Shown here piece after piece: positions 1,923 to 60,086 of a DNA stretch of 64,000 bases. The DNA comes from Alphaproteobacteria bacterium. GTDB lineage: Bacteria > Pseudomonadota > Alphaproteobacteria > Caedimonadales > UBA1908. The DNA lies in assembly GCA_021298595.1 (NCBI GenBank), contig JAJTHL010000015.1, positions 22,299-86,298 on the forward strand, given 5' to 3'. A program made the position numbers and the translations under genes. Below the pieces are notes generated by a model. The model made no database searches, was not told the DNA's origin, and was given only the letters and a program-made list of their open reading frames with translations. Position 1 is the first letter of the stretch. Every line of letters starts with the position of its first letter.

Positions 1923-3212
1923 CTATAAAGACCACGCTGTTTTAGGGGCGTACCTCTCCTTTAACAGCAGCTCAGTCACCGCCCAAACCAAAGCGTCCAG
2001 ACGATCAGGTGAGGGATCACCCGGTTGGTACTCACACAGTTGACGCTCAAGCTGACCCAGTGACCGCCCCGTGTGAAAAACACGGCCCTGGATATATAGA
2101 TTTGCAACAGGTTCTGCCCGCGTGAGTTTGCCCCGTGTGGCACGGACAGCCTTGTAGGGGATTGTATGATCATGGCTGCGCAGCATCTGCTCGACCAAAT
2201 CTCCCCCCTGATTCACCTCTGCAATGAGGTGGTCCGCCCCGTAGTGATGAAAGGCAGCAATTGCCTTAGTGGCCCACTCGTGGGGTTTGTAGCGGCCACT
2301 GACATCATCAAGAACATAGGCGCGTCCCTGCGCATCTTTGCCCGCAACAATGATCCCGGTCTCGTCGCTATTTTTGTGACTTGTCACCGCTGGATCCACA
2401 GCCACGACCACTCTGACAAGGGCAGGCGGCACTTCTTGATAACACCGACGAAGGGTTGACGCTGTCCATAAGCTGTCTTGAGAGTCCTCCACAAGCTCTC
2501 CGTACAGTTCCTGGGCCCCAAGCCGTGTATGAGCATATCTTTTTTTAATTTCTGTGAGAAAGCTTCCCGATAAGTGCGCGGCATTATCAAAAGTTGATCC
2601 TCTTGTAATTAAAATATCTTTTGTCTTACTTGCCAAAAGATCTTTTATTAGCGGCGTTGGTCTTGGTGTGGTCGTGACAATCACCCGTGGATGAGGTCCT
2701 TTTCTTAAAGAGAACATGAGTTGATCCCAAACCTCTTGAGGTCTTGTACACTTCGCAAGCTCATCCACCCAAGCTGCATCAAACTGTGGACCACGCAGTT
2801 GGGCAGGCCGCTCCCCACTAAAAAGGCTTGCTTTAGCGCCATTTTTCCATATGACAAGACCTCGTGATGGATAGAAGCGGGGGGCTTGGTGAGCGGGATG
2901 AACTTCAAGTAGGCCACTTTCACCTTCTAACATCACACGTCTGACGTCATTTAATGTGTGACCGATCAGGGCGACATGTTTTGCTTGTCCTGACATCACC
3001 CACTCTCTTACGGTTTCCGCTCCTGTTCTTGTTTTTCCAAACCCACGCCCCGCTAGAATGAGCCATACTTTCCAGGGTCCCTCTGGGATCCTCTGATTCG
3101 GCCGGGCGGTCCGGTGCCAGTTGTAGTCTTGCTCTGCCATGCGGCGACGCAAATATTCTTGGCGAATCATTTCTCTTAGTTCTTTTTTTTGACTATCAAA
3201 GTCCATGGTCAT
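1923..3212 (-). CDS. Phage/GTA-type terminase large subunit
   Basis: Intact 429-aa ORF. Walker A-like WLILAGRGFGKTRTGAE, Walker B-like AAWVDELAKC, and a C-terminal RNaseH-like nuclease part (VVAVDPAVT...GIIVAGKD). From memory it resembles RcGTA g2 / Terminase_6 proteins. Confidence 0.75.
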   Translation of the reverse strand: MTMDFDSQKKELREMIRQEYLRRRMAEQDYNWHRTARPNQRIPEGPWKVWLILAGRGFGKTRTGAETVREWVMSGQAKHVALIGHTLNDVRRVMLEGESGLLEVHPAHQAPRFYPSRGLVIWKNGAKASLFSGERPAQLRGPQFDAAWVDELAKCTRPQEVWDQLMFSLRKGPHPRVIVTTTPRPTPLIKDLLASKTKDILITRGSTFDNAAHLSGSFLTEIKKRYAHTRLGAQELYGELVEDSQDSLWTASTLRRCYQEVPPALVRVVVAVDPAVTSHKNSDETGIIVAGKDAQGRAYVLDDVSGRYKPHEWATKAIAAFHHYGADHLIAEVNQGGDLVEQMLRSHDHTIPYKAVRATRGKLTRAEPVANLYIQGRVFHTGRSLGQLERQLCEYQPGDPSPDRLDALVWAVTELLLKERYAPKTAWSL

Positions 3213-3259
3213 CCTCCTATTTGAGGATCAGTATGACCAATAGCCCTTTTATTTAGTTA

Positions 3260-4239
3260 TTAAGAAGAGGGATGATTTTTTTTTTCAATCTTTTCATCCA
3301 CTGGCACGTAGCCTAACCTTTTCGCTGTCTCATCACCCTCAAGAATCATCCACTTAAAAAGTTGGGTAATCTCTTGACCGCGTGGGTGCTTTTTTTCATA
3401 TAGCCCATAAAAAACCATGATGATTGGCCATTCTGTATCGTGGGCATGCTCGGGGATTTTTTCTTCGTCGAGGGTATGGTGAACAAGTGATTGACTAAAC
3501 ACTTGATATTTTGGTGAGATGAATTTGCTGTCACCATTATCGAGGCTGACCATAAAAAGCGATCCTTTTTTTTGCACTCGCGTAATCTGCGTAGGTAATG
3601 GCTCCCGGGGTACGAGAAAAACGATCCAACAATTCAGCTTTACCCTTGACCCCTTGACCCACTGGCCACTTAACCATAACTTCTGAGCCAATTGTTTGTT
3701 GCCACTGCCTACTTGCTTTGGCCAAATATGACGCAAAGTACTTTGTGCTCCCCGATGAATCTTCTCTATACATCACGGTGATCTCCAAGTTGGGAAGAGT
3801 CTGTGTGGGATTCAGGTCCAAGATTTTTTGGTCGTTCCATTTCGTAACCTTGCCCAAATAAATCTCCGTCAACACGTTTGCAGACAGCTTTAAATCACTC
3901 ACCTGCTTTAAATTCGCCACAACCATGATTCCTGTAAGGGCCATGGGAAACTGGACAACGTGGCTTTTTTGAACTTGGTCTGACGTTAGAGGTAAATCCG
4001 TGACAGCATAATCAAAGTCCCCCTTTTGAAGCTGAATAATCCCCGCACCAGATCCAGATGGTTCGTAGGTAATCTTTAAATCAGAATGCCCCTTGAATTC
4101 TTTGAGCCATTCGTGCATCAAATTCTCAAAGACTCGTGATCCTCCCCCTTTGAGGGTCACACTTCCTTGGCTATGAGAGAAGACCTCTCCCACCATGCAA
4201 AGGAAAAGAAAAAAGGCCCTGCCACATTACTTTTTCCAT
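3260..4239 (-). pseudogene. pstS: Frameshifted phosphate ABC substrate-binding protein PstS
   Basis: Two overlapping frames (3537-4196 and 3260-3736) together read as one PstS: SGSGAGI, GAITYADYASAKK then GSLFMVSLDNG, WPIIMVFYGLY, LGYVPV. The frame changes at a coding-strand A8 run (+ strand T8, 3566-3573). A signal-peptide-like N-terminus from ATG 4239 is out of frame across a T6 run (+ strand A6, 4209-4214). Confidence 0.6.
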
Positions 4240-16436: not shown

Positions 16437-18227
16437 ATGCGTTTTTTCATGAGACCCGTGATTTTGTTTGTCTACCTTCTTTCCACACCGGCACTTTGTC
16501 TTGCAAGCCTTAACGGGGATCAAAATGACGGCCCAGAATCAAAAACACCGTCAGGTTTGTTAAGATCCGTGAGCGCTGCGCCTCTTCCCGAAGAGTTAAC
16601 AGCGCTGCCCGCCACCTCTCAATCTTCTCTAGGGGTAATGGGCGGGATCAAACTGTTTTTTACAAGCCTTTTTGAACCGTTCATTGATGATCAAGCGCAG
16701 GCTTTTTACCATACACAATTGGAGGCTATGCAACATCAAGGGGTTTTGGGATATGGGAAAGACCTTGTGATGACCCAAGCACAGTGGGCCAAAGACCATC
16801 CCATGGACGCGGTCCTGGATACGGTGAGTTTATCCGGTGCCGTTATTCTTGGTCACACCAATATTGCAGCCACCTATCCTCAGCTTTTAACGGCTTACCA
16901 AACCCTCGGGATCGCAAGACCTGTTGCGGCCGTTTTTAATGATCTTCCCTCGCAGGACGCTCGCAAATGGCTGCCACGCTTGTTGGAAGCAAGCGCCTAT
17001 TCGGTCACCCTTTATCTAGTCTCACAACTCCCCATGGGGGCTGAGGCTGCTTCTTTTAATAGTTACGCAGACGCAAGACGTACTTATAGCGGGTATGGGT
17101 GTCCCATTGATCAACAAATTGTTTCAGATGCAACCGATGTGGGACGCTGCTTGGCAGAGCCTGGAAGCACATTGGAAATATGCCAAACAAGACTGCCAAA
17201 CTATCCAGGACTTGAAAAAGATCTCTATGTTTTTACACGCCACCCGCATGTCACAAACCCCTCCCTTGATCCCGTCTCCGTGACACGTCTTGATTTGAAT
17301 CAGACCTGTATCCAGTCTGCTCTTAGCCCTAATACTCCTGTTACACAAATTTGCTATAAAGGGGAACTTATCCCAACGTCAGCCTTCAAAGTCACGCGCC
17401 TTAATGACCTGACGTTAAGTCAGGGGCATGAAGGGTTAGAATCTGGTGAAAGCGCACGGCACCTTGGCATTCGTCATGGCGGTTATGGATGTGGTCTTTT
17501 TAATAAAGCGCAAACCACCTATGACCTAGGGAAACAACCCCTTTGTTTTAAAAGTGCCACAGAAACAGGGGGGCCTGTGACTCAACTTTGTGTTGACCCA
17601 GCAAGACCAGAAGTGATGACGGTAAAGGAAGTACCTGCAGACACCTCCCTGATCTTTCCCGATGACGGCTCTCCTGCATTTCGGGTGATTATTCCAAGCC
17701 GCAAAAGTGGGATTGATATCCACCCCGATGACGGAAGAGCGCCGACGGTGCAGCTTCCGATTTTTGATCCCCTAACACAATGCGCATTAAATGGTACTCG
17801 TCCATACCACGAAGTTTGCATGGCTCTTCCTGATAGCAATGTCCGCGCCCTTCCTTTGAACAACCATGGGACGACCAGCGCGGTTTTAACCTTTGATCCT
17901 TTGACACAATGCGCGTTAAATGGCACTCGTCCACACCACGAAGTTTGTCCAGCTCTTTCAGACGTCGCCCCCTCCCTTCCTTTAAACAGCCATGGGGCAG
18001 ACGACTCTTTGACACAGTTTGGTCTGAGTGACGCACCGAATCTTGACACTGAGGAAGCAAGGACGCCGTCATCATTTTCTGACGCTGATCCCGAGGAGTT
18101 TGAGGACGAATTCGATTTAATCCAAGAGCTCTCGTCCCTTGCAACGCAAACAGCAAACCGATTTCAAGCCATTTACACTAAGTGGTCACACAGGAAGTGG
18201 TGGTTTCAGCGTCAAAAAACTCTCTAA
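16437..18227 (+). CDS. Secreted Cys-pair repeat protein (hypothetical)
   Basis: Signal peptide MRFFMRPVILFVYLLSTPALCLA. Repeated modules each carry two or three Cys (YGCP...C...C, LNQTC...ICY, YGCG...C...LC, PLTQC...VC x2). Acidic C-terminus DADPEEFEDEFD. Confidence 0.5.
   Translation: MRFFMRPVILFVYLLSTPALCLASLNGDQNDGPESKTPSGLLRSVSAAPLPEELTALPATSQSSLGVMGGIKLFFTSLFEPFIDDQAQAFYHTQLEAMQHQGVLGYGKDLVMTQAQWAKDHPMDAVLDTVSLSGAVILGHTNIAATYPQLLTAYQTLGIARPVAAVFNDLPSQDARKWLPRLLEASAYSVTLYLVSQLPMGAEAASFNSYADARRTYSGYGCPIDQQIVSDATDVGRCLAEPGSTLEICQTRLPNYPGLEKDLYVFTRHPHVTNPSLDPVSVTRLDLNQTCIQSALSPNTPVTQICYKGELIPTSAFKVTRLNDLTLSQGHEGLESGESARHLGIRHGGYGCGLFNKAQTTYDLGKQPLCFKSATETGGPVTQLCVDPARPEVMTVKEVPADTSLIFPDDGSPAFRVIIPSRKSGIDIHPDDGRAPTVQLPIFDPLTQCALNGTRPYHEVCMALPDSNVRALPLNNHGTTSAVLTFDPLTQCALNGTRPHHEVCPALSDVAPSLPLNSHGADDSLTQFGLSDAPNLDTEEARTPSSFSDADPEEFEDEFDLIQELSSLATQTANRFQAIYTKWSHRKWWFQRQKTL
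17763..17997 (+). repeat. Tandem in-frame duplication, period 129 bp (43 aa)
   Basis: FDPLTQCALNGTRP(Y/H)HEVC...LPLN(N/S)HG occurs twice, starting at 17763 and 17892. The 5' half of each unit shows high nucleotide identity. Confidence 0.8.
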
Positions 18228-18274: not shown

Positions 18275-18441
18275 AGTCTTATCATCACATCTATACATCC
18301 TTAACCGGATTTCAGGATAAAGCTTGACGCCTTTTTGCACGTATTTTTTTGACAAAAGGGCATTGCTTTTTTTGTCAAAAATACCTATACCCATGGGACT
18401 ATGCTGTTCTTTTATTGTTTTTTGCCTTTAGAAAGTGCCCC

Positions 18442-19845
18442 ATGAAGAAAATTAACCTGTTGTTAAAATTAAATAATTTCGCAGCTTATTTTTTGTTTTC
18501 ATTGGCGCTAGGACCCCTGGTCCAGGCTTCGCTCTTTAACCAGAGCGACGAGTTGACATTAACGCAGCCGCTTACGCTCCCAAAACCCGCACTCCCTAGC
18601 GAGTCCCCTGTGATGCATGCTTCTTCAAGTGCCGGTCAATTTGATGAGTATGGCCCTCAAAGGGAGCGATACAAAAAGCCACGTCTTGGTAAAAAGCATA
18701 AATCTCTCTTAATGCAGGAAAATACAGAAGAGGGGGACGACTCTGAATCATCGATGTCTTCCTTGGACGCCGCGACAGGCTCTTCCTCTAGCTCACAAGA
18801 TGAAGAGAATATACCCGTTGATTTTAATCTCGCTTCACTGCCGACCTTCTCTCCTCTTCGCCCGCAACCCGTTACATGCTTTAGCCCTTTCACGCCAAAA
18901 ACCCTTAGTGATTTCAAAAGAAAGCGCATAGATCCCGAAACTTATAAAGAAGCCGTTCTTTGCCTTTTTCAGTCTCCCCAACGCAGGCCTTTGTCTATAC
19001 CTCACACGTTGCCAACTGTGCGCAATGAGAAAATACAACAAGCCCTTTTGCAAAAAAAATTCTTTTATCAGCAAGCCCTCATCGAGGCTGGAAATGGCCA
19101 CAAGTTACGCAGCCAAACACCCTCGGATATCGTGGTTCACGGAAAGAGACGCCCAGCCCATGTTTTGACCCATCAGGTGAGCGTCGTGCAAGAGCCTCGC
19201 GAAACCCGCGAAGCGCGCATCGCCCGTGAGAAACAACAAACAAAGCTTATAAAGCAGGCGCGACAGCACCAGTTTGCCCTTACGAATCCCGACGCGGTCT
19301 CCAAGGAGAGCGCACAAATTTCCCTGTACATTTGCTATTTATCTTTGCGAAAGCAAAAAGTGGACCCCGACAACTTGCGAGACACCCTCATTCGCAAAGC
19401 AGAAATTGAAGACGTTGTAGACGACTTATTCAAAGATGAAAACGCCCCAGATCTTGAGGAAAACCAAGCGACCTATTGGCGGCTTGAGATTTCTGGCTAC
19501 GTTATTTTCATGCCGACATTTTTTGATTACACGACTAAGGATGCCTTCACAGGAGAAAGTGGATTAGACAGAATGAGACGTTTTCTTGCGCCCTTTGATC
19601 CCCATGGTGACTCGACCCACCTTCATCATGCGACCCTTTACGATAAGAAAACACATCATACGACCAGCTATTTAATCGCCATGAGTCACGCAGAGCACGA
19701 ATCTCATCATAGCGGGCTCCATTTTACAGACACCCATTACTGGATGCCAAAAGCCCCGGTGGACAGAAACCTCTTTGGGCACGCCAAAAAAGAAATCTAT
19801 CCTGCTGTGGCTGATTTTATCGAAAAGCGTCTGTCCCACCAATAG
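18442..19845 (+). CDS. Secreted protein with C-terminal HNH/EndoVII-like (LHH-type) putative nuclease domain
   Basis: Start set to ATG 18442 (MKKINLLLKL..., with signal-like FAAYFLFSLALGPLVQA). Ser/Asp/Glu-rich tract and basic clusters (KKPRLGKKHK, FKRKRID). The C-terminus DSTHLHHATLYDKK..SYLIAMSHAEHESHHSG resembles the sHH...H...H beta-beta-alpha-metal motif of LHH/WHH toxin nucleases. Confidence 0.4.
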   Translation: MKKINLLLKLNNFAAYFLFSLALGPLVQASLFNQSDELTLTQPLTLPKPALPSESPVMHASSSAGQFDEYGPQRERYKKPRLGKKHKSLLMQENTEEGDDSESSMSSLDAATGSSSSSQDEENIPVDFNLASLPTFSPLRPQPVTCFSPFTPKTLSDFKRKRIDPETYKEAVLCLFQSPQRRPLSIPHTLPTVRNEKIQQALLQKKFFYQQALIEAGNGHKLRSQTPSDIVVHGKRRPAHVLTHQVSVVQEPRETREARIAREKQQTKLIKQARQHQFALTNPDAVSKESAQISLYICYLSLRKQKVDPDNLRDTLIRKAEIEDVVDDLFKDENAPDLEENQATYWRLEISGYVIFMPTFFDYTTKDAFTGESGLDRMRRFLAPFDPHGDSTHLHHATLYDKKTHHTTSYLIAMSHAEHESHHSGLHFTDTHYWMPKAPVDRNLFGHAKKEIYPAVADFIEKRLSHQ

Positions 19846-19850
19846 GGTGC

Positions 19851-20420
19851 CTATTGAACAAAAAGCCTCAACTGATCTTTTACAAAGTCAGTAAGCGATG
19901 GCCATGACTCAGGCTGACCCGTGACTCCAGCCCGGTAAACACAATAAACGCCTTTCGTGTGACGGTCGTAGCAATAGTGGGCAAGCGTGTCTGGCACTTC
20001 CATCAAGGGGGTCAAGTGTCCAAAAGATTGCTGAGGTTTTTCGCACAAAGCGCTTTTTTGCCCCCTGTAAAAGGCACGCCAAATAGCGGGATAGCGCCCT
20101 TTCGGGTGAGCTAGCTCCACAATCTCCCATCGAAGATGCGCGCATTCTTTGAAAAAATCCTTGACCACTTCTGGCAACATGCAAGGTAGCGTTTTTTCCA
20201 AATTCGTAAGATCTTCATCGCTCACTAAGGGAATGCCATCCGGGTATGTGGACGTTTTCAAATGAGGGACTTTGTCGAGCAGCTGCCCGAGCGCCTGATC
20301 TGTGCGTAAGCCCACAGAAGGGAACCGAGAGAGTTTCTCTTCTTCTTGGCTTGCAAATACAACGTTAACGGTGAAGAGCATTCCTATCATGAGAACGCGT
20401 GCTATCCATATATTTTGCAT
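19851..20420 (-). CDS. SUKH/SMI1-KNR4-like protein (putative immunity protein) with N-terminal signal/anchor
   Basis: DEDLTNLEKTLPCMLPEVVKDFFKE (the i..lE..lg..LP..yk.f pattern). The C-terminal part is HYCYDRHTKGVYCVY...ESWPSLTDFVKDQL. The N-terminal hydrophobic segment is IARVLMIGMLFTVNVVFA. It is convergent with the putative nuclease gene, 5 nt stop-to-stop. Confidence 0.4.
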   Translation of the reverse strand: MQNIWIARVLMIGMLFTVNVVFASQEEEKLSRFPSVGLRTDQALGQLLDKVPHLKTSTYPDGIPLVSDEDLTNLEKTLPCMLPEVVKDFFKECAHLRWEIVELAHPKGRYPAIWRAFYRGQKSALCEKPQQSFGHLTPLMEVPDTLAHYCYDRHTKGVYCVYRAGVTGQPESWPSLTDFVKDQLRLFVQ

Positions 20421-27368: not shown

Positions 27369-28706
27369 TTACGGGGCTTCGAATTTCTTGGTAAGGGCGC
27401 CTATGACCTCGTCTAGAAGCCCTTTGTCGTCAGCCTGGCCCATGATCCGTACAAGGGGCTCTGTGCCAGAAGGGCGCACCAACAGGTGCCCTTTTCCTTC
27501 AAGACGGGCCTCGGCGTCCTTGACCGCGTCCTTGATACTTTGATGATCGAGAATCTGGCGGTCCAAAAGGGGCACGTTCCGTAGCACCTGGGGGACAGGG
27601 TCAAAAACATGGGCAACCTGGGACAGGGGCGATTTAGTGCGACACAAAACAGCCAGCACCTGAAGGGCTGCAATGATGCCGTCACCCGTATGGGCATAGT
27701 CGCTTAGGATAATGTGACCTGACTGCTCGCCCCCTAAATTCGCGCCGCGCTCTTCCATCCAGGCTGCCACATATTTGTCACCCACGGGCGCCCGTAGAAG
27801 AGAAAGCCCCTGCTTTTCAAGATACCGCTCAAGGCCCAAGTTTGCCATGACAGTTCCCACAACCTGAGGACTTGTCAGGCGCCCTTCTCGCTGCCAGGAC
27901 GAGGCAATAAGCCCCAGCAATTGATCGCCGTCAATAAGATTCCCTTTTTCATCAGCCATCATAAGACGGTCCGCATCCCCATCAAGAGAAATCCCAAGAT
28001 CCGCACGTGTTTGCACCACCGTATCCTGCATGGTACGCGTAGCGGTCGCACCCACATTTTGATTGATGTTAAAACCGTTGGGCGTAATGCCGACGGGAAT
28101 GACCTCAGCGCCAAGTTCCCAAAATACGGCGGGCGCCACGCGGTAGGCAGCCCCATTGGCGCAGTCCACCACAATGCGAAGGCCTTCTAAGCGCAAGTCA
28201 TCGGGAAAGGTGCGTTTGACTGCCTCGATATAGCGCCCCAGCGCGTCATCAAGGCGCCTTGCTTTCCCCAGGTGGCTTGCATCCGGCAAGGCGTTATGAA
28301 AGGGCTCATCCATCAAAGATTCAATGGCGGACTCGTCCTCAAGGGAAATCTTCTTGCCCGTCGCATCAAACATTTTAATTCCGTTATCGGCGTGGGGATT
28401 GTGGGAGGCACTGATCATCACGCCAATGTCGGCGCGAAGAGACGGCACGAGCATGGACACGGCTGGGGTCGGCACCGGCCCCAAAAGCATCACATCAAGC
28501 CCCATGGAAATAAACCCAGCTGTCAGTGCTGGCTCAATCATGTAGCCCGAAAGCCTTGTGTCCTTTCCCATGACCACAAGGTGTCGGTGATCTTTGCGCT
28601 TTAAATGGCGCGCCGTTGCGATGGCAAGTTTTGTCATCACATCGGGCGTCATGGGGTAACAGTTCGCGCGCCCTCTCACCCCATCCGTTCCAAAAAGCTT
28701 TGCCAT
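27369..28706 (-). CDS. glmM: Phosphoglucosamine mutase
   Basis: MAKLFGTDGVRG, phosphoserine loop ISASHNPHADNGIK, DGDADR, and GGEQSGH. Confidence 0.95.
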   Translation of the reverse strand: MAKLFGTDGVRGRANCYPMTPDVMTKLAIATARHLKRKDHRHLVVMGKDTRLSGYMIEPALTAGFISMGLDVMLLGPVPTPAVSMLVPSLRADIGVMISASHNPHADNGIKMFDATGKKISLEDESAIESLMDEPFHNALPDASHLGKARRLDDALGRYIEAVKRTFPDDLRLEGLRIVVDCANGAAYRVAPAVFWELGAEVIPVGITPNGFNINQNVGATATRTMQDTVVQTRADLGISLDGDADRLMMADEKGNLIDGDQLLGLIASSWQREGRLTSPQVVGTVMANLGLERYLEKQGLSLLRAPVGDKYVAAWMEERGANLGGEQSGHIILSDYAHTGDGIIAALQVLAVLCRTKSPLSQVAHVFDPVPQVLRNVPLLDRQILDHQSIKDAVKDAEARLEGKGHLLVRPSGTEPLVRIMGQADDKGLLDEVIGALTKKFEAP

Positions 28707-40605: not shown

Positions 40606-41763
40606 ATGAAAAAAAGATACAGCTTAGATCTTTGTATCTCTTTTAAAAAAAGCGTCTCCTTAGGCATGATGCTTCTTTGCTTGACGCCCTCCTTTGCGCC
40701 TGCAGCCGAGCTATCCGTGCGCATTAAAGACATTGTGACCTTCGAGGGAATCCGGGAAAACCAGCTTGTAGGGTACGGTCTTGTGGTGGGCCTTAAAGGA
40801 ACAGGGGACACCCTTAAAGACTCTCCCTACGCCCTTGAGACCATGGTCAGTATGCTCGAGCGCCTTGGTGTGAACGTCCGTGATAAAGCCACCGACATGA
40901 AATCTAAAAATGTGGCAGCCGTCATGGTGACGGCAAGCTTGCCCGCCTTTGCAAGACACGGCACACCCCTTGACGTGCGTGTCTCTGCTATAGGGACTGC
41001 TAAAGATTTGTTGGGTGGGACTCTTCTTGTAACCCCCCTTATGGGGGCGGACGGTGAAGTGTACGCCGTCGCCCAAGGTCCCCTTGTCACGGGGGGCTTT
41101 TCGGCCGAAGGTCAATCTGGTTCCTCGGTCACCAAAGGCGTACCCACCAGTGCCCGCATTGCCAACGGCGCCCTTGTGGAAAAAGAAATTCCCTTCGAGC
41201 TTGATTCGCTCAAAAGCATTCGCCTTTCCCTTCGCAACCCCGACATGACAACGGCCGGACGCATCGCCGCCGCCATTAATGCCCACACTCCTGGCTCGAA
41301 GGCTTCTGCCCAAGATCCCTCGACTGTCAATGTGGCACTGCCGACCGCGAGCAAGAAAAGCGTGATGGATTTTCTAACCAGCATCGAGCAACTCCGTGTG
41401 GCGCCCGATCAAACAGCCAAAGTCATTATTGACGAACAAAACGGGGTCATCGTGATGGGCAAAAATGTACGCATCTCCAGTGTGGCCGTCAGTCACGGCA
41501 ATCTGACCATTCGAATTACGGAAACGCCGCAAGTGTCCCAGCCCAATCCTTTTTCCACAACCGGCAGCACCGTTGTGGTGCCTCGGACAGGCATTAACGT
41601 AAATGAAGACGGCAAAAAAATGACAGTCCTCGAAGAAGGCGTGACCCTTCAAGAACTCGTGGATAACTTGAACGCTCTTGGTGTGTCTCCGCGCGATATG
41701 ATCACCATCCTTCGCACCATCAAAGCGGCTGGGGCCCTTCAAGCAGAAATTGAGGTGATCTAA
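40606..41763 (+). CDS. flgI: Flagellar P-ring protein FlgI
   Basis: Signal peptide, then RIKDIVTFEGIRENQLVGYGLVVGL.GTGD and the C-terminal LNALGVSPRDMITILRTIKAAGALQAEIEVI. Confidence 0.95.
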   Translation: MKKRYSLDLCISFKKSVSLGMMLLCLTPSFAPAAELSVRIKDIVTFEGIRENQLVGYGLVVGLKGTGDTLKDSPYALETMVSMLERLGVNVRDKATDMKSKNVAAVMVTASLPAFARHGTPLDVRVSAIGTAKDLLGGTLLVTPLMGADGEVYAVAQGPLVTGGFSAEGQSGSSVTKGVPTSARIANGALVEKEIPFELDSLKSIRLSLRNPDMTTAGRIAAAINAHTPGSKASAQDPSTVNVALPTASKKSVMDFLTSIEQLRVAPDQTAKVIIDEQNGVIVMGKNVRISSVAVSHGNLTIRITETPQVSQPNPFSTTGSTVVVPRTGINVNEDGKKMTVLEEGVTLQELVDNLNALGVSPRDMITILRTIKAAGALQAEIEVI

Positions 41764-41764
41764 A

Positions 41765-42076
41765 ATGGCAGAGATTCTTTTTTCCACGCAATCATCCCTT
41801 CATGAGAAAAAACTCATGGCAAACATGTCTGAGGCCACAAAGAAAGATGTGGCAGAAAACGCCAATAAATATGTGTCGTTCTTAATGTCGACCTTTGCAC
41901 AAGTCATGCTGGACGCGAGAGGTCGCTCGGAAGATCCCGCCCAGGACATGGCTGAAAGCACCTTTTTTGCCGACACCATGGGAGAGGCCCTTTGCGAGTC
42001 TGACATGGGCCGCGATCTTCAACAAACCCTTCAAGCCTCCATGCTTGAAATGGCGGCCACAGGAGGTCGTCCATGA
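41765..42076 (+). CDS. flgJ: Rod-binding (FlgJ N-terminal-like) protein
   Basis: 103 aa immediately after flgI. The pattern FLMSTFAQVMLDARG...STFFADTMGEAL loosely fits the Rod_binding domain. There is no muramidase domain. Confidence 0.45.
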   Translation: MAEILFSTQSSLHEKKLMANMSEATKKDVAENANKYVSFLMSTFAQVMLDARGRSEDPAQDMAESTFFADTMGEALCESDMGRDLQQTLQASMLEMAATGGRP

Positions 42077-42477
42077 AAGAGCTTTTTTTCTGTATTGAGG
42101 CGCTTATGACCCTTCTTCAAGAGGAAAGCATGCTTCTTGATCAAAGAAATATCAAAGAAGTGCAGCTTCTCACACCCGAAAAAAGTCGCCTTTTGGGACA
42201 GTACTTTAGCCTTTTAGAGCAAGGTACGCCTCATATCTCGACGCAAACAGAAATCAAAAACATCTTTTTGGAAAAGCTCGGCGCCCTTCAACACGCCATG
42301 GAACAAAACCACGAGAAAATCAAACTCGCGGCCGAAGCCCATTCCAGGGTTACCAACACAATCAAGCGGGCTCTTTTTGGTCAAAAGCGAAAGCCCGTAA
42401 CACAGTATGGCGCCACCGGGACCCTGGTGAAACCTTCCCTTGCTATTGGTGCGGCGCGCATCAATCAAAGAATGTAG
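42073..42477 (+). CDS. FlgN-like flagellar export chaperone
   Basis: 134-aa helical protein directly upstream of flgK. LLQEESMLLDQRNIKEVQLLTPEKSRLL resembles the FlgN N-terminus. Confidence 0.4.
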   Translation: MKELFFCIEALMTLLQEESMLLDQRNIKEVQLLTPEKSRLLGQYFSLLEQGTPHISTQTEIKNIFLEKLGALQHAMEQNHEKIKLAAEAHSRVTNTIKRALFGQKRKPVTQYGATGTLVKPSLAIGAARINQRM

Positions 42478-42486
42478 GAGGATCCC

Positions 42487-44337
42487 ATGCCTGACGCCTT
42501 TCAAATTGCACGTGCTGGGATGAGCACATCCAGTACAATTATGGATACCCATTTCACCAACATCACCAACGCACAAACACCTGGCTATTCAAAAAAAGTT
42601 TCACAAGCTTCAACCATGATCCTTGATGGAGAAGCAGCTGGGGTAAAACCAAGTGTGGCCCAAAGGCTTTTGGATCCACTTTTGGCAGGAGAGCTGCGGG
42701 ATGAGTACTCTCTTGCTACTCATCTCACAACAAAAGCGTCCCTCATGAAAAAAATAGAGCAGCAGTTTGGTACCCCAGGGGATAAAAACTCCTTAGGTGA
42801 GCAGATTCGCAGTATTTCCAATGCCTTTGAGACATTGTCTACCACCCCTACCAGCACCATTGCGAGGAAAGATGTTCTCAATAAAATTAACAATTTCTCC
42901 TATGAGATTTCACGTCTTAGTGGTCAAATCCAAGGCATGCGTCAAGAGGTTGATAATAAAATCGCAACGGCCATTGCAGAGGTAGATACACAGCTAAGCA
43001 ACGTCAAGTCCCTCAACGAGCAAATTGCTGCAAACTTCCACTCAGGAAAACCCACCGGAGATTTGGAAGATTCCCGGGACAAAGCCCTTAATATCATTGC
43101 AAAGCACATGGATATCCAGGTGACCAGTACCGATGAGGGTATCATCTATATTCAAACAGGAGGCGGAAACGCCCTTCTTTTTCCTGATATTGTGCCCATG
43201 ACCTATAATCCAACGGTTAATATTACGGCGACGTCCACCTATGATCCTAACCCTGTCACCTCAACCATCAATCACATTACCGTCACGGACAGCCTGGGTA
43301 ATATCATCAATCTAACCCCTGATTTTACCGATGGTGATATTGCAGCTTACATTGAAATGCGAGATACGGTCCTGCCCAACCTTCAGCAGCAATTGGACCG
43401 CCTGTGCACTGACTTTAGAGACGGCCTCAATGCCCTTCATAACACAGGGACGGGTTATCCGCCCCCAGACGTTCTCACGGGAACAAAAATTATGGCAAAC
43501 CCCAATACCGACCTGTTTCAAGGCGCTGGCACCGTGAGGTTTGCCCTTATTGATAAAGCCAACGGTCAAATGGTCGGCGGAAATAGCTTTGACCTTGACC
43601 TAACGGCCATGGGAAACGTCTCGGTGGCGCAACTTGCCGTGAATATCCAGGCAGGTCTTGCAGGCCTTGTGGGCACGGCGACTGCTACCTGCGATGCAAG
43701 CACCCATAACCAGCTTGTGCTGAACACGGGAAACGCGGCCTACGGCATTGGCATCGTGCCGCTGGCAGGGGGGGCAACTGAAACCGTCACGGGTCTTGGA
43801 TTTTCCCATTATTTTGGCCTGAATGATCTGATTATTACCCCAGGATACGGTGCTCAAGGGGCCGCCCCCACCCCAGGTATATGTCAAAGTTTAGGGGTGC
43901 GCGCCGACATTTTGACCAACGACCAGTATTTAGCACGCGGCGCCATCTCGTCAGCGGCAGTAGCTCCCCTTCCGCCCTTGGGGGTCATTGCAACCGGTGA
44001 TAGTTCTGTGACCCGGGCTATGGTGAACGAACTTGTCACACCGCGTACTTTTTCAGCTGCGGGAGGCCTTACCAATATTTCAGTAAGCTATATCGATTAT
44101 GGTTCAACCATTATTACCACTCACGCAGCCAGCACAAGTAACGTGAATACCAGGGCTCAAAGCGAGCTGACCCGCCAACAAGCCCTGGAATATGCCATTG
44201 GAGAACAGGTCGGCGTCGACGTCCAAGAAGAATTTGCCGACGCCATCGCGTGGCAGCAGGTCTTCATTGCCTCCTCACACGTGGTGGGGCTGGTCAAAGA
44301 ACGTAACCAGGCCATTATGGCCATTATGAACAGGTAA
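42487..44337 (+). CDS. flgK: Flagellar hook-associated protein 1 FlgK
   Basis: N-terminal rod/hook-family heptads (AFQIARAGMSTSSTIMDTHFTNITNAQTPGYS). The C-terminal is EEFADAIAWQQVFIASSHVVGLVKE. 616 aa. Confidence 0.85.
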   Translation: MPDAFQIARAGMSTSSTIMDTHFTNITNAQTPGYSKKVSQASTMILDGEAAGVKPSVAQRLLDPLLAGELRDEYSLATHLTTKASLMKKIEQQFGTPGDKNSLGEQIRSISNAFETLSTTPTSTIARKDVLNKINNFSYEISRLSGQIQGMRQEVDNKIATAIAEVDTQLSNVKSLNEQIAANFHSGKPTGDLEDSRDKALNIIAKHMDIQVTSTDEGIIYIQTGGGNALLFPDIVPMTYNPTVNITATSTYDPNPVTSTINHITVTDSLGNIINLTPDFTDGDIAAYIEMRDTVLPNLQQQLDRLCTDFRDGLNALHNTGTGYPPPDVLTGTKIMANPNTDLFQGAGTVRFALIDKANGQMVGGNSFDLDLTAMGNVSVAQLAVNIQAGLAGLVGTATATCDASTHNQLVLNTGNAAYGIGIVPLAGGATETVTGLGFSHYFGLNDLIITPGYGAQGAAPTPGICQSLGVRADILTNDQYLARGAISSAAVAPLPPLGVIATGDSSVTRAMVNELVTPRTFSAAGGLTNISVSYIDYGSTIITTHAASTSNVNTRAQSELTRQQALEYAIGEQVGVDVQEEFADAIAWQQVFIASSHVVGLVKERNQAIMAIMNR

Positions 44338-44352
44338 GGAAAGGGACGAGCA

Positions 44353-45297
44353 ATGCCAGAAATCGCCACGCGTGCCGGAGACTATGCCAGATTTCAGCAG
44401 CAGAACATTAATCGCATCAATACCGGAAAAGCCCTTGACACTACTCAAGGTCAACTCACCTCCGGTCAAAAGTCTCTTGCTTACAGTGATGATCCCAATA
44501 ATTTAACCGAGGTGTTTAACATCAAGACCGAGCTAAATAAAATTACCCAATACAAAAATAATATCAACAAGGTCGACGGACGCCTTGAGGTTGCAGAGAC
44601 TTCTCTCAATACAATCCTTGGCATCATGCAAGAGTTTCGCTCGAATCTTGCACGTATAGTGCAACCCGGAAACAAGGACGACGCCTTTCAAGCCTTTTGT
44701 AATAACTGTCTTCAAGGAATGGCCGACGCTCTCAACGCCGTAGACTCTGAAAAGAATAATGTCTTTGGTGGCACCATGTGGCAAGGGACAGTGGTGGATT
44801 TAAGCGCGCTCCCTACACCAGGCCTAGGCTCAAACCCCACAACGGCTTACTATAAAGGGGATCAGGGACAAAACATCGTTCATATCAATGATAATAATAA
44901 TATGGATTACACTTTTCGCGCTGACGATCCTGCCATTGCTGAGGTCTTTTATGCCCTAAAAATTGGCGCCACGACCACACCTGATTACGATGAATCAGGT
45001 CCCAATATGCAAAAACTTCGTCAAGCCCTGAATGCCATTAATCAGGCAACAGAGGATGTTCCAGCCATGCTTGCACGGGTTGGGACAATTCGTAAAAATT
45101 TATCTGTTACGCTCACAAACCACACCACCATTGAAGATAATTTGAAAGTCCTAGATGTCACCTTGACAGAGGTTGACCCTGTGGAAGCTTGGATTCTTTT
45201 AATGAACCTAAAGGCTCAGCTGGAAATGAATGTGGCCGCAACAGCTCAATCTGCCGAGCTGACAAAAACAACCCTCAACGCTTTAATGAAATCATAG
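44353..45297 (+). CDS. flgL: Flagellar hook-associated protein 3 FlgL
   Basis: Flagellin-like N and C termini (LTSGQKSLAYSDDP...; EVDPVEAWILLMNLKAQLEMNVAATAQ). It follows flgK. Confidence 0.75.
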   Translation: MPEIATRAGDYARFQQQNINRINTGKALDTTQGQLTSGQKSLAYSDDPNNLTEVFNIKTELNKITQYKNNINKVDGRLEVAETSLNTILGIMQEFRSNLARIVQPGNKDDAFQAFCNNCLQGMADALNAVDSEKNNVFGGTMWQGTVVDLSALPTPGLGSNPTTAYYKGDQGQNIVHINDNNNMDYTFRADDPAIAEVFYALKIGATTTPDYDESGPNMQKLRQALNAINQATEDVPAMLARVGTIRKNLSVTLTNHTTIEDNLKVLDVTLTEVDPVEAWILLMNLKAQLEMNVAATAQSAELTKTTLNALMKS

Positions 45298-58066: not shown

Positions 58067-58834
58067 TTACAAAGGACGTTTTACGCTTTGCCAGATGCGT
58101 CTTGTGAGAACACCCATCATAACCGTGAAGAGGCCTAAGAAAATCATCACGACTACGCCCATGTGTTTACGCGTTTCCATTTCTGGTTCAGACGCCCAAG
58201 CAAGAAAGGTCACAACGTCGTGGGCCATTTGGTGAATGGTGGCTTTGGTGCCATCGGGGTAAGTCACCTGTTCATCACTAATAATAGGAGGCGCCATGGC
58301 AATTTGATGCCCAGGAAAATATTTATTGTAGTGCATTCCTGTCGCCATCTGCATTCCTGCAGGCGTCTTTTCATATCCTGTAAGAAGTCCAAAAATGTAA
58401 TCTGCACCGTGTGGTCTTGCCTTTACAACCATGGATAAGTCTACAGGAAGGGCGCCGTTGTTAGCCTCACGCGCAGCCGCCTCTGTAGGGAAAGGGTGCG
58501 CGAAAAAGTCCTTTGGCTCTGCCTTACGTTTGGTGGGTTGACCATCATCAGCCACAGGGCCAGCGACCTCGTACTCAGCCGCAATAGCCTTAACATCTGA
58601 CTCCGTAAAGCCTAGGGCCTTGAGTTTTTCATACCTCAAGTGATGCATGCCGTGGCAGGCAGCGCACACTTCCCGGTAGACCTGAAGACCGCGCCTGACG
58701 GAGGGGCGATCATAGGTGCCAAAGGCTCCAGAAAAACTCCACTTCTGGGCAGGGGGCTTAGGGGTTTCATTGGCATAAAGAACTGACCCCCCTAAAATAA
58801 ATAAGCAAAGAAAGAGCCAAAGATTTTTTTTCAT
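58067..58834 (-). CDS. petC: Cytochrome c1
   Basis: Signal peptide, heme site CAACHGM, and a C-terminal TM anchor. Confidence 0.9.
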   Translation of the reverse strand: MKKNLWLFLCLFILGGSVLYANETPKPPAQKWSFSGAFGTYDRPSVRRGLQVYREVCAACHGMHHLRYEKLKALGFTESDVKAIAAEYEVAGPVADDGQPTKRKAEPKDFFAHPFPTEAAAREANNGALPVDLSMVVKARPHGADYIFGLLTGYEKTPAGMQMATGMHYNKYFPGHQIAMAPPIISDEQVTYPDGTKATIHQMAHDVVTFLAWASEPEMETRKHMGVVVMIFLGLFTVMMGVLTRRIWQSVKRPL

Positions 58835-58838
58835 GTGA

Positions 58839-60086
58839 CTATCCTTTCTTTGAAGGGGATTTCACTCCCGAAAACGCCGCCTCGTAAATGCTGTCAGGGA
58901 CAGCACGCGTTCGCTCTATCCGCGGCAAAAACGGCAGCACCACCAAAAAGTAAAAGAAATAATAGAATGTCGACAACCGACTCACAAGAAGCGGGATTCC
59001 TTCTGGCTGTTGGCCTCCTGCCCATCCAAGAGCCAGACATGAAACAATAAGGAGGGTGTAAAATACCTTAAAGAAAGGGCGGTATTTTCCGCTTCTTACG
59101 GGTGAGCGATCAAGCCAGGGAACAGTGAAGAGAATTCCCACTGCCGCAAACATTAAAAAGACGCCGCCGAGTTTGTCAGGAACTGATCGCAAAATGGCAT
59201 AGAAGGGTAAGAAATACCACTCAGGTACAATGTGGGGCGGAGTGAGAAGGGGGTTTGCTGGAATATAGTTATCTGGCTCACCAAAAAAGTTAGGCGCAAA
59301 AAAGACGAAACCCGCCCAAATCAATAAAAAGATCCCCAGTCCATATAGATCTTTCACGGTATAATACGGGTGAAAGGGGATGGTGTCACTGGGATTTTTC
59401 TTTTCAACACCCGATGGATTGTTCGACCCATTGGTATGAAGGGCCACAAGGTGCAGCACCACAATGCCAATGAGAAGCATGGGAAAAAGGTAGTGAAGTG
59501 AGAAAAAGCGGTTCAGGGTGGGGTTATCCACAGAAAATCCCCCCCAAAGCAGGGTCACGATCGCGTCCCCCACCACGGGAATCGCAGAAAACAGGTTCGT
59601 GATGACCGTGGCCCCCCAATAGCTCATTTGACCCCAGGGCAGCACATATCCCATAAAGGCCGTGGCCATCATCAAAAGCAAGATGACCACACCCATAATC
59701 CACAAAATCTCACGAGGCGCCTTGTATGACCCATAGAAAAGGCCCCTAAAGATATGAATATACACGGCGATAAAAAACATAGAAGCGCCATTCATATGAA
59801 TGTAGCGAATAAGCCATCCATAATTGACCTCACGCATGATACGCTCGACGCTGTCAAAGGCATGGTCCACATGGGGCGTATAGAACATAGCAAGAAAAAT
59901 TCCTGTCAGGACCATAATCACCAAGGTGATCCCCGCAAGAGACCCAAAATTCCACAGATAATTCAGGTTTACAGGAGTTTTGTAGTCAACCAGATGTTCC
60001 TTAGCAAAAGAGAAAAAAGGAAGTCTTGCATCCACCCAGGCCATAAATCCCGTTTGATTTTGTGGCGTGTTTTTTTGTTCTGACAT
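58839..60086 (-). CDS. petB: Cytochrome b
   Basis: [33 protein letters not shown]. Confidence 0.95.

Follow-up and report, generated by a model that had tools for sequence, protein, structure and literature searches.

Predicted exported LHH-type nuclease proteins with a convergent SUKH-family partner that also bears an export signal: a locus of an alphaproteobacterium compared with known toxin-immunity systems

Nuclease domains of the LHH family and proteins of the SUKH superfamily form a canonical toxin-immunity pairing (PMC3113570; PMC5714182), and the classical LHH toxin domains (Zhang et al. 2011, PMC3113570; group 11 of Jablonska et al. 2017, PMC5714182) are carried by polymorphic toxins, among them CdiA and Rhs. 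Here, a gene pair of this kind was analyzed that lies in a stretch of 64,000 nt from an Alphaproteobacteria bacterium (assembly GCA_021298595.1, contig JAJTHL010000015.1, positions 22,299 to 86,298 of the forward strand; the whole stretch is called the window, and all coordinates refer to it). The pair consists of a gene for an exported LHH (HNH/EndoVII) nuclease protein of 467 aa (18442..19845, plus strand) and, tail to tail with it, a gene for an exported SUKH-family protein of 189 aa, the predicted periplasmic inhibitor or immunity protein (19851..20420, minus strand). To our knowledge, the immunity proteins of the described LHH-SUKH pairs, which act in contact-dependent warfare, are always cytoplasmic. 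For the locus in the window, we lean, with modest confidence, towards a Sec-exported nuclease toxin that is guarded in the periplasm by the SUKH inhibitor, so that both partners would reside outside the cytoplasm.

Comparison with the classical LHH-SUKH pairs revealed both likenesses and differences. The nuclease family, the HH dyad, the two helix His residues, and an adjoining immunity gene of the same superfamily are shared. In contrast to the classical toxins, the protein in the window has only a signal peptide and no Rhs, CdiA, PAAR, LXG, or other trafficking module, and its first 340 residues have been conserved jointly with the toxin domain and not recombined. The SUKH gene runs convergently and encodes a protein with an export signal, whereas 11 classical partners are co-directional and cytosolic. 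A further difference is that orphan cassettes are absent from the 64-kb window, which also contains neither a second LHH or SUKH copy nor immunity arrays.

Two other described systems are similar in part. Like the locus in the window, the MafB system of Neisseria (PMC4287609, PMC3482391) combines Sec export by an N-terminal signal with a lineage-specific conserved domain and an adjoining immunity gene. However, MafB proteins have a MAFB-N/DUF1020 domain and polymorphic C-termini, the cytoplasmic MafI is encoded co-directionally, and a MafA lipoprotein partner is present; DUF1020 was not detected in the 467-aa protein with Pfam. The SitBAI system of Myxococcus (PMC5562445) comprises a Sec-exported nuclease toxin and the SUKH-family protein SitI, and an upstream secreted protein is found there as well (SitB, with a type I signal). 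It differs from the locus in the window in that SitA is a lipoprotein nuclease that is moved between cells by TraA/B outer-membrane exchange, and in that sitI lies in an operon directly downstream of sitA and the SitA toxin domains are neutralized in the cytoplasm by co-expressed SitI. In addition, the upstream 596-aa protein of the window is missing from the loci of the wider family.

The nuclease bacteriocins (colicins E2, E7, and E9 and the S-type pyocins) resemble the 467-aa protein in their disordered N-terminus, their central domain, their C-terminal HNH-type DNase, and the linked inhibitor. Colicins have no signal peptide, are released by a lysis protein, are plasmid-borne, and are SOS-regulated, and the immunity proteins of the colicin DNases are small cytoplasmic four-helix proteins and not SUKH proteins. 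The locus in the window does not belong to this class, as its nuclease domain is LHH and not Colicin-DNase, its partner is SUKH and not a colicin immunity protein, and a signal peptide is present. Sequence searches of the PDB revealed no similarity to colicins beyond the His-Me core, and any likeness to the nuclease bacteriocins concerns the architecture alone. With regard to gene layout, the locus is similar to the pore-forming colicins, which act from outside the cell and have convergent, separately transcribed immunity genes with products that counter the incoming toxin outside the cytoplasm. Secreted non-specific nucleases with a protein inhibitor from the same organism are also represented by Anabaena NucA/NuiA and by barnase/barstar; NuiA and barstar are intracellular and share no relationship with SUKH proteins. 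Within the His-Me superfamily, NucA falls into the DRGH branch and not into LHH (PMC5714182). The combination of an exported SUKH protein, convergent genes, and a conserved N-terminal architecture is not present in classical LHH-SUKH pairs, MafB, or SitBAI, and full-text literature searches did not retrieve any description of an exported convergent LHH-SUKH variant.

The nuclease domain comprises residues 340-467 of the 467-aa protein (19459..19842, plus strand) and was characterized with hhalign, AlphaFold, Foldseek against BFVD, and HMMER. LHH (PF14411) was the sole Pfam match of the protein (E 0.0034, 18 bits), and the same family was matched by five of five close family members, with a best E-value of 5.3e-6. 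A profile of the window clade was compared with a profile of classical LHH toxin domains, which had been built from PF14411-annotated proteins and Rhs-linked proteins, and the two profiles were aligned over 114 columns (hhalign 99.1%, E 6.9e-19). On the basis of this profile-profile comparison, the homology of the C-terminal 128 aa to the classical LHH toxin domains can be regarded as settled. A profile that contained only classical LHH proteins recovered the 467-aa open reading frame (ORF) in a six-frame translation of the window (E 4.6e-14). When the last 128 residues were used in an exhaustive HMMER search, 51 cluster representatives were obtained. Most of the stronger matches were 370-550 aa long and carried the domain at their very C-terminal end, and the weakest matches were classical LHH toxin domains. 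A word-indexed protein search with the family profile found only 7 short classical LHH proteins.

Alignments of 37 and 40 sequences contained the invariant residues H395, H396, H419, H427, and R442 and no others. The codons for His395-His396 (19624..19629, plus strand) specify the HH dyad, the predicted metal ligand and general base. The Leu in front of the dyad is not conserved, and ANAHH is found in one relative. The region from the His419 to the His427 codon (19696..19722, plus strand) places these two residues at i and i+8, a spacing that fits the metal ligands of His-Me nucleases (PMC5714182). Arg442 (codon 19765..19767, plus strand) is part of a (V/I)(D/N)R..F motif and presumably has a functional role; a supplementary active-site Arg is present in some His-Me nucleases (PMC5714182). 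In the window clade, residues 384-392 read PFDPHGDST, while the near-invariant sequence of the family is PIGxDGxxM. All five invariant residues are intact in the window protein despite the clade substitutions. The C-terminus of the protein can thus be concluded to form an LHH-type nuclease domain that is intact and would be expected to be active.

An AlphaFold2 model of the LHH domain, which was based on the 37-sequence alignment, had a predicted local distance difference test (pLDDT) value of 92.4 and a strand-strand-helix core. Strand 391-396 ends in H395-H396 and is followed by a second strand and then by a helix (domain residues 77-82) whose first turn contains H419; H427 follows 8 residues further on. 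In His-Me finger nucleases, the catalytic His ends strand 1, often after a metal ligand, and a His or Asn in the first helical turn is accompanied by a further ligand at +4 or +8 (Jablonska et al., PMC5714182). The arrangement in the model fits this active-site layout. Foldseek against BFVD returned a single significant match, which was a predicted phage protein annotated as LHH (E 8.7e-4, target-normalized TM 0.63). Sequence searches of the PDB with the nuclease-domain profiles did not produce a meaningful match. An earlier note on this DNA, made from the letters alone, had likened the C-terminus of the protein to the LHH/WHH/AHH group of His-Me finger toxin nucleases, and had quoted a motif, DSTHLHHATLYDKK..SYLIAMSHAEHESHHSG, that is found at residues 390-424. 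Strong similarity to the LHH profile and a confident model with an HH-ended strand, a second strand, and a His-bearing helix support that view. Of the similarities that the note had named as checks, the profile similarity was obtained (PF14411 match), and a structural similarity is suggested by the model (pLDDT 92) and the BFVD LHH match.

The remainder of the protein can be divided into three parts. A Sec signal peptide for signal peptidase I (SPase I) is predicted for residues 1-29 (MKK...LVQA|S; 18442..18528, plus strand). It was read from the N-terminal segment, which is MKKINLLLKLNNFAAYFLFSLALGPLVQA|S. The homologues have kept a comparable n-h-c segment, which ends in AHA|S, and a hydrophobic N-terminus is present in most LHH proteins of the wider family. 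Residues 30-139 (18529..18858, plus strand) form a variable low-complexity region that is rich in Ser/Thr and Asp/Glu, contains basic patches (RYKKPRLGKKHK), and shows the lowest conservation within the protein. The third part is a conserved, family-specific central region (residues 140-339; 18859..19458, plus strand), which could be aligned across 40 family members, is homologous over its full length in the aligned family, and has no Pfam match. When residues 140-467 were modeled together, the mean pLDDT was 92.5 and the predicted TM score (pTM) was 0.81. Every aligned family member with a length of 300 aa or more (39 and, in addition, the window protein) ends in the same C-terminal LHH domain. 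Trafficking domains of type V, type VI, or type VII secretion systems (T5SS, T6SS, T7SS), Rhs, or CdiA were not detected on the toxin with Pfam, NCBIfam, or PADLOC, and the NCBIfam and PADLOC scans gave nothing relevant.

The 467-codon ORF extends on the plus strand from an ATG at 18442 to a stop codon at 19843-19845 and has four full-length homologues with 51-94% identity. An alternative upstream start (TTG at 18349) would extend the ORF, but all homologues begin at the equivalent of the ATG at 18442. As the earlier note had described, the genes for the 467-aa and the 189-aa proteins are convergent, and their stop codons are separated by only 5 nt (GGTGC). Inspection of the sequence showed that this tail-to-tail junction lies within a palindrome, CAATAGG-GTG-CCTATTG (19840..19856), and that both genes are terminated by CAA-TAG (Gln-stop). 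There is no terminator-like site between the two genes. With a spacer of nearly zero, a terminator would not fit between them, and therefore, the two transcripts probably overlap.

The 189-aa protein matched two Pfam families, SUKH_5 (PF14567; E 1.6e-5, 25.1 bits, profile positions 15-141 of 142) and SMI1_KNR4 (PF09346; E 0.0012), and both were also matched by three of three members of the window clade. A comparison of the SUKH family of the locus with eight other SUKH proteins aligned residues 41-185 (hhalign 95.2%, E 2.8e-8), and the SUKH domain was placed at residues 59-184 (19869..20246, minus strand). A PDB search with the SUKH profile gave only chance matches to antibodies. The SMI1/KNR4 (SUKH-1) assignment of the earlier note was correct with respect to the superfamily, for which the note had wanted profile similarity and which is supported by the Pfam and hhalign matches, but the best model is SUKH_5 and not SUKH-1. 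Homologues are 60-100% identical and always adjoin the LHH gene.

A signal peptide is also predicted for the SUKH protein (residues 1-23, ...VVFA|SQEEE; 20352..20420, minus strand). It was read from the N-terminal segment, MQNIWIARVLMIGMLFTVNVVFA|SQEEE, and is conserved in the homologues; in two orthologues the sequence is LFAS|CEEE, which is lipobox-like. The hydrophobic segment is always followed by an acidic flank, and therefore, the SUKH domain is predicted to be located outside the cytoplasm, irrespective of whether the segment is cleaved. The residues Cys 80, 93, 126, and 150 are invariant in the clade and would fit an oxidizing compartment, which is weak evidence for such a location. 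By these features, the 189-aa protein is a divergent SUKH protein, and its export signal is conserved.

Next, the arrangement of the two genes was compared between lineages. The window clade comprises four lineages, i.e. the window, a 94%-identical strain, the metagenome-assembled genome (MAG) MCMED-G24, and a JGI contig. The gene order is LysR, NDUS4, a secreted protein of about 560-596 aa, LHH (plus), SUKH (minus), an ABC-type binding protein, and a Na/sulfate-family transporter, and the 5-nt gap between the stop codons is identical in all four lineages. In the wider family, which was represented by metagenome loci (L009-L013), a convergent gene is located directly downstream of the LHH gene in five of five testable loci. 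The stop codons overlap or abut, e.g. in a shared TTAA, and the overall range of spacing is -4 to +5 nt. The partner proteins have 166-205 aa, and all five have a hydrophobic N-terminus (peak hydropathy 2.0-2.8). The partners at L009-L012 exceeded the SUKH_5 cut-off of 27 with 30-62 bits, and the partner at L013 was recognized by locally built SUKH profiles. The metagenome scan was run with a tighter sub-alignment, because the broad family alignment was too divergent, and a narrow SUKH profile of three sequences missed the L009-L012 partners, which were found with Pfam and with a wider profile.

The same search also retrieved classical LHH loci of the Rhs type and others (L015-L025). In these, by contrast, a co-directional SUKH gene is located directly downstream of the LHH match, and 11 of 11 classical SUKH proteins are devoid of a signal-like segment (hydropathy at most 1.15). 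The convergent, nearly zero-spaced adjacency of LHH and SUKH has been kept in nine lineages that span about 20-25% protein identity. Convergence, a SUKH protein with a signal sequence, and the absence of a trafficking domain are thus defining traits of a subfamily, and the three oddities that had been flagged in the earlier note for this one locus turned out to be real and conserved throughout the family. The family consists of about 50 sequence clusters from uncultured aquatic organisms, and its members stem from alphaproteobacterial or proteobacterial MAGs. The database names are exclusively 'hypothetical protein' or 'HNH/ENDO VII family nuclease'.

The locus evolves considerably faster than its surroundings. 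In comparison to MCMED-G24, the flanking proteins are 87-98% identical, whereas identity drops to 54% for LHH, 60% for SUKH, and 56% for the upstream secreted protein. The number of non-synonymous substitutions per site (dN) is 0.27-0.38 for the fast genes versus 0.01-0.16 in the flanks; the ratio to synonymous substitutions (dN/dS) is unreliable for this pair of genomes, because dS is saturated. In comparison to the near-identical strain, the LHH gene has 30 non-synonymous differences (dN 0.028, dN/dS 0.21), while most flanking genes have 0-5 (dN at or below 0.003). The dN of the LHH-SUKH pair is 5-10 times that of the flanks. Of the 27 amino acid changes in the LHH protein, 20 are located in residues 31-93, and strain-level variation is therefore concentrated in the N-terminal stretch and not in the toxin domain. 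The dN/dS of the LHH gene of about 0.14-0.2 indicates purifying selection.

The locus has the same G+C content as its flanks and lies in preserved synteny, and recent horizontal acquisition is therefore unlikely; the locus is vertically inherited, single-copy, and locally fast-evolving. The earlier note had likened the gene pair to a polymorphic-toxin module. The pair of domains and the rapid divergence of toxin and immunity relative to the genome are in agreement with this view. In contrast, recombination of C-terminal cassettes in the sense of PMC3482391 was not observed, and the locus shows neither a same-strand downstream immunity gene nor orphan cassettes, the partner being convergent in nine of nine lineages. 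Because it is syntenic, single-copy, and free of cassette swapping, the locus is not a classical polymorphic-toxin locus.

Several neighboring genes were also inspected. Directly upstream of the LHH gene lies a gene for a secreted protein of 596 aa with 13 Cys residues (16437-18227, plus strand), which has no Pfam, NCBIfam, or PADLOC family. The protein contains a 43-aa tandem duplication (FDPLTQCALNGTRP[YH]HEVC...) with starts at residues 443 and 486, and its rate of divergence matches that of the LHH-SUKH pair (56% identity, flanks 87-98%). It was considered as a conserved third component, but this was rejected because no homologue is present at the loci of the wider family. At L011, a lysine-rich secreted protein of 515 aa is encoded just upstream of LHH (2665-4212, minus strand); it has no Pfam match and is unrelated to the 596-aa protein. 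At L009 (contig Ga0214919_10007270, 1946-4788), the LHH-SUKH pair adjoins divergent tssF and tssG genes (Pfam 619 and 208 bits). Delivery by a T6SS is nevertheless unlikely, because the Sec signal argues against it and the linkage to tssF/tssG was observed at L009 only.

More distant parts of the window contain a lone gene for a large terminase subunit (Terminase_6N and 6C; 1923-3212, minus strand) among ordinary chromosomal genes; this gene may have been left behind by a gene-transfer agent or a prophage. A phosphoglucomutase-family gene (27369-28706, minus strand) has a dS of 0.20 (58 synonymous differences) versus the near-identical strain L026, compared to about 0.005-0.05 for its neighbors, which suggests a recombination tract. 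The translations of genes at 40606-45297 (plus strand) were read as the flagellar P-ring protein FlgI and the hook-associated proteins FlgK and FlgL, and cytochrome bc1 genes are located at 58067-60086; these genes mark the organism as motile and respiring. There is no sign of genome reduction within the 64-kb window.

The reading towards which we lean, a Sec-exported toxin with a periplasmic inhibitor, would involve the following steps. The 467-aa precursor would be exported unfolded via Sec, and as a consequence, the chromosome of the producer would never meet the folded enzyme and cytoplasmic immunity would not be needed. Residues 140-467 would fold in the periplasm; His396 would be the general base, and His395, His419, and His427 would hold the metal ion. 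The SUKH protein would be exported separately, would be cleaved or lipid-anchored, and would block the nuclease domain in the periplasm. There it would protect the producer and its kin at the site where folded toxin, own or incoming, could start re-entry. The toxin would then be released across the outer membrane. Competing bacteria would most likely be attacked in the style of a nuclease bacteriocin, and the variable disordered N-terminal stretch would mediate uptake. A bacterial target is considered most likely because the SUKH gene has been retained in every lineage, whereas host-directed effectors usually come without immunity (PMC3482391). The convergent layout would give the inhibitor its own promoter, and an arms race might be the reason for the fast divergence of the LHH and SUKH genes.

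Some observations weigh against this scenario. The LHH score of the window protein (18 bits) is below the Pfam gathering cut-off of 23.3, and the SUKH_5 score (25.1 bits) is below that of 27. The window clade has lost near-invariant residues of the family (PIGxDG to PFDPHG, and TN to SG). Foldseek searches of the PDB with the models of the LHH domain and of residues 140-467 retrieved no solved His-Me nuclease and no match below E 2; an LHH structure appears not to have been deposited, the table in PMC5714182 listing none. The export signals of both proteins were judged by eye and by hydropathy and not by a dedicated prediction program. It is not obvious what a DNase would cut in the periplasm, and the need for a periplasmic inhibitor depends on an assumed re-entry into the cell. 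The 64-kb window contains no outer-membrane release system. With a dN/dS of about 0.2, selection is not overtly positive. Lastly, the locus is syntenic and single-copy and has no orphan cassettes or immunity arrays, unlike typical interbacterial toxin loci.

A different explanation would be that the LHH nuclease is an effector delivered into a protist or another eukaryotic host, where it would act as a genotoxin or nucleomodulin. Basic clusters in the N-terminal region would be nuclear localization signals (NLS), and the periplasmic SUKH protein would only keep the enzyme inactive or secretion-competent until its release. Of 38 family members, 19 have clusters of at least four K/R in five residues in their variable N-terminal region, compared with 4.3 +/- 1.9 in shuffled sequences, and none of 2000 shuffles reached this count. 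The clusters resemble classical NLS, e.g. PPKKRKA, KKRKN, and KRKRVSRRKR, but they might just as well be sites of protease processing or patches that bind DNA or membranes, and the window protein itself has only a weak basic patch and no 4-in-5 cluster in its N-terminal region. Delivery to a host would also fit with the conservation of the whole protein as one unit and not as swappable cassettes, with the confinement of the family to uncultured MAGs, with the moderately low G+C content (36-40%) at several member loci, and with the known reuse of polymorphic-toxin domains as host effectors by endosymbionts (PMC3482391). However, such effectors typically have no immunity gene (PMC3482391), in contrast to the SUKH gene that accompanies every lineage here. 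Furthermore, the gene set of the window is ordinary, with flagella, a respiratory chain, and many transporters, and it includes no intracellular hallmark and no type IV or type III secretion system (T4SS, T3SS). A host-directed effector is therefore regarded as unlikely. Doubtful, too, is the proposal that the proteins constitute an undescribed class of secreted nucleases with periplasmic interception. In its stronger form, this proposal envisages a nucleus-targeted genotoxin of eukaryote-associated Alphaproteobacteria, in which the KKRK patches would be NLS, the central domain of about 200 aa would act as a novel module for delivery or DNA handling, with SUKH as a holding factor.

It is rather improbable that the protein is not a weapon at all but a secreted or periplasmic nuclease with a dedicated regulating inhibitor, which would serve DNA nutrition, biofilm remodeling, or the processing of taken-up DNA. 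Such a role would be in accordance with a chromosomal, single-copy, syntenic, and vertically inherited locus with the G+C content of its flanks, with the lack of a delivery apparatus, and with the predicted presence of both proteins in the compartment where such an enzyme would act. The lone terminase gene, which suggests a gene-transfer-agent-like element in the window, could be reconciled with it as well. Yet an identity of 54-60%, versus 87-98% for the neighbors, is unexpected for an enzyme with a housekeeping or nutritional function. Outside the family, the domain is most closely related to Rhs-linked LHH toxins that have SUKH immunity, and the long variable disordered N-terminal stretch would have no obvious role. 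Lastly, the Pfam scores below the cut-offs and the changes at some near-invariant positions in the window clade might indicate that LHH and SUKH are not a functional pair or that the nuclease is inactive, e.g. co-opted for binding, but this explanation is very unlikely: adjacency, orientation, and near-zero spacing are conserved across nine lineages, all five invariant residues are intact, and both genes are under purifying selection.

Taken together, the whole family is predicted to place both the toxin and the inhibitor outside the cytoplasm. Should this hold, the two genes would offer a tractable system for the questions of how a nuclease crosses membranes without a known delivery machine and whether it is directed at rival bacteria or at the nucleus of a host. 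If the favored reading of a Sec-exported toxin and a periplasmic SUKH inhibitor is true, Sec export can substitute for cytoplasmic immunity against a DNase, self-protection can shift to the periplasm, and SUKH proteins can function in an oxidizing compartment.

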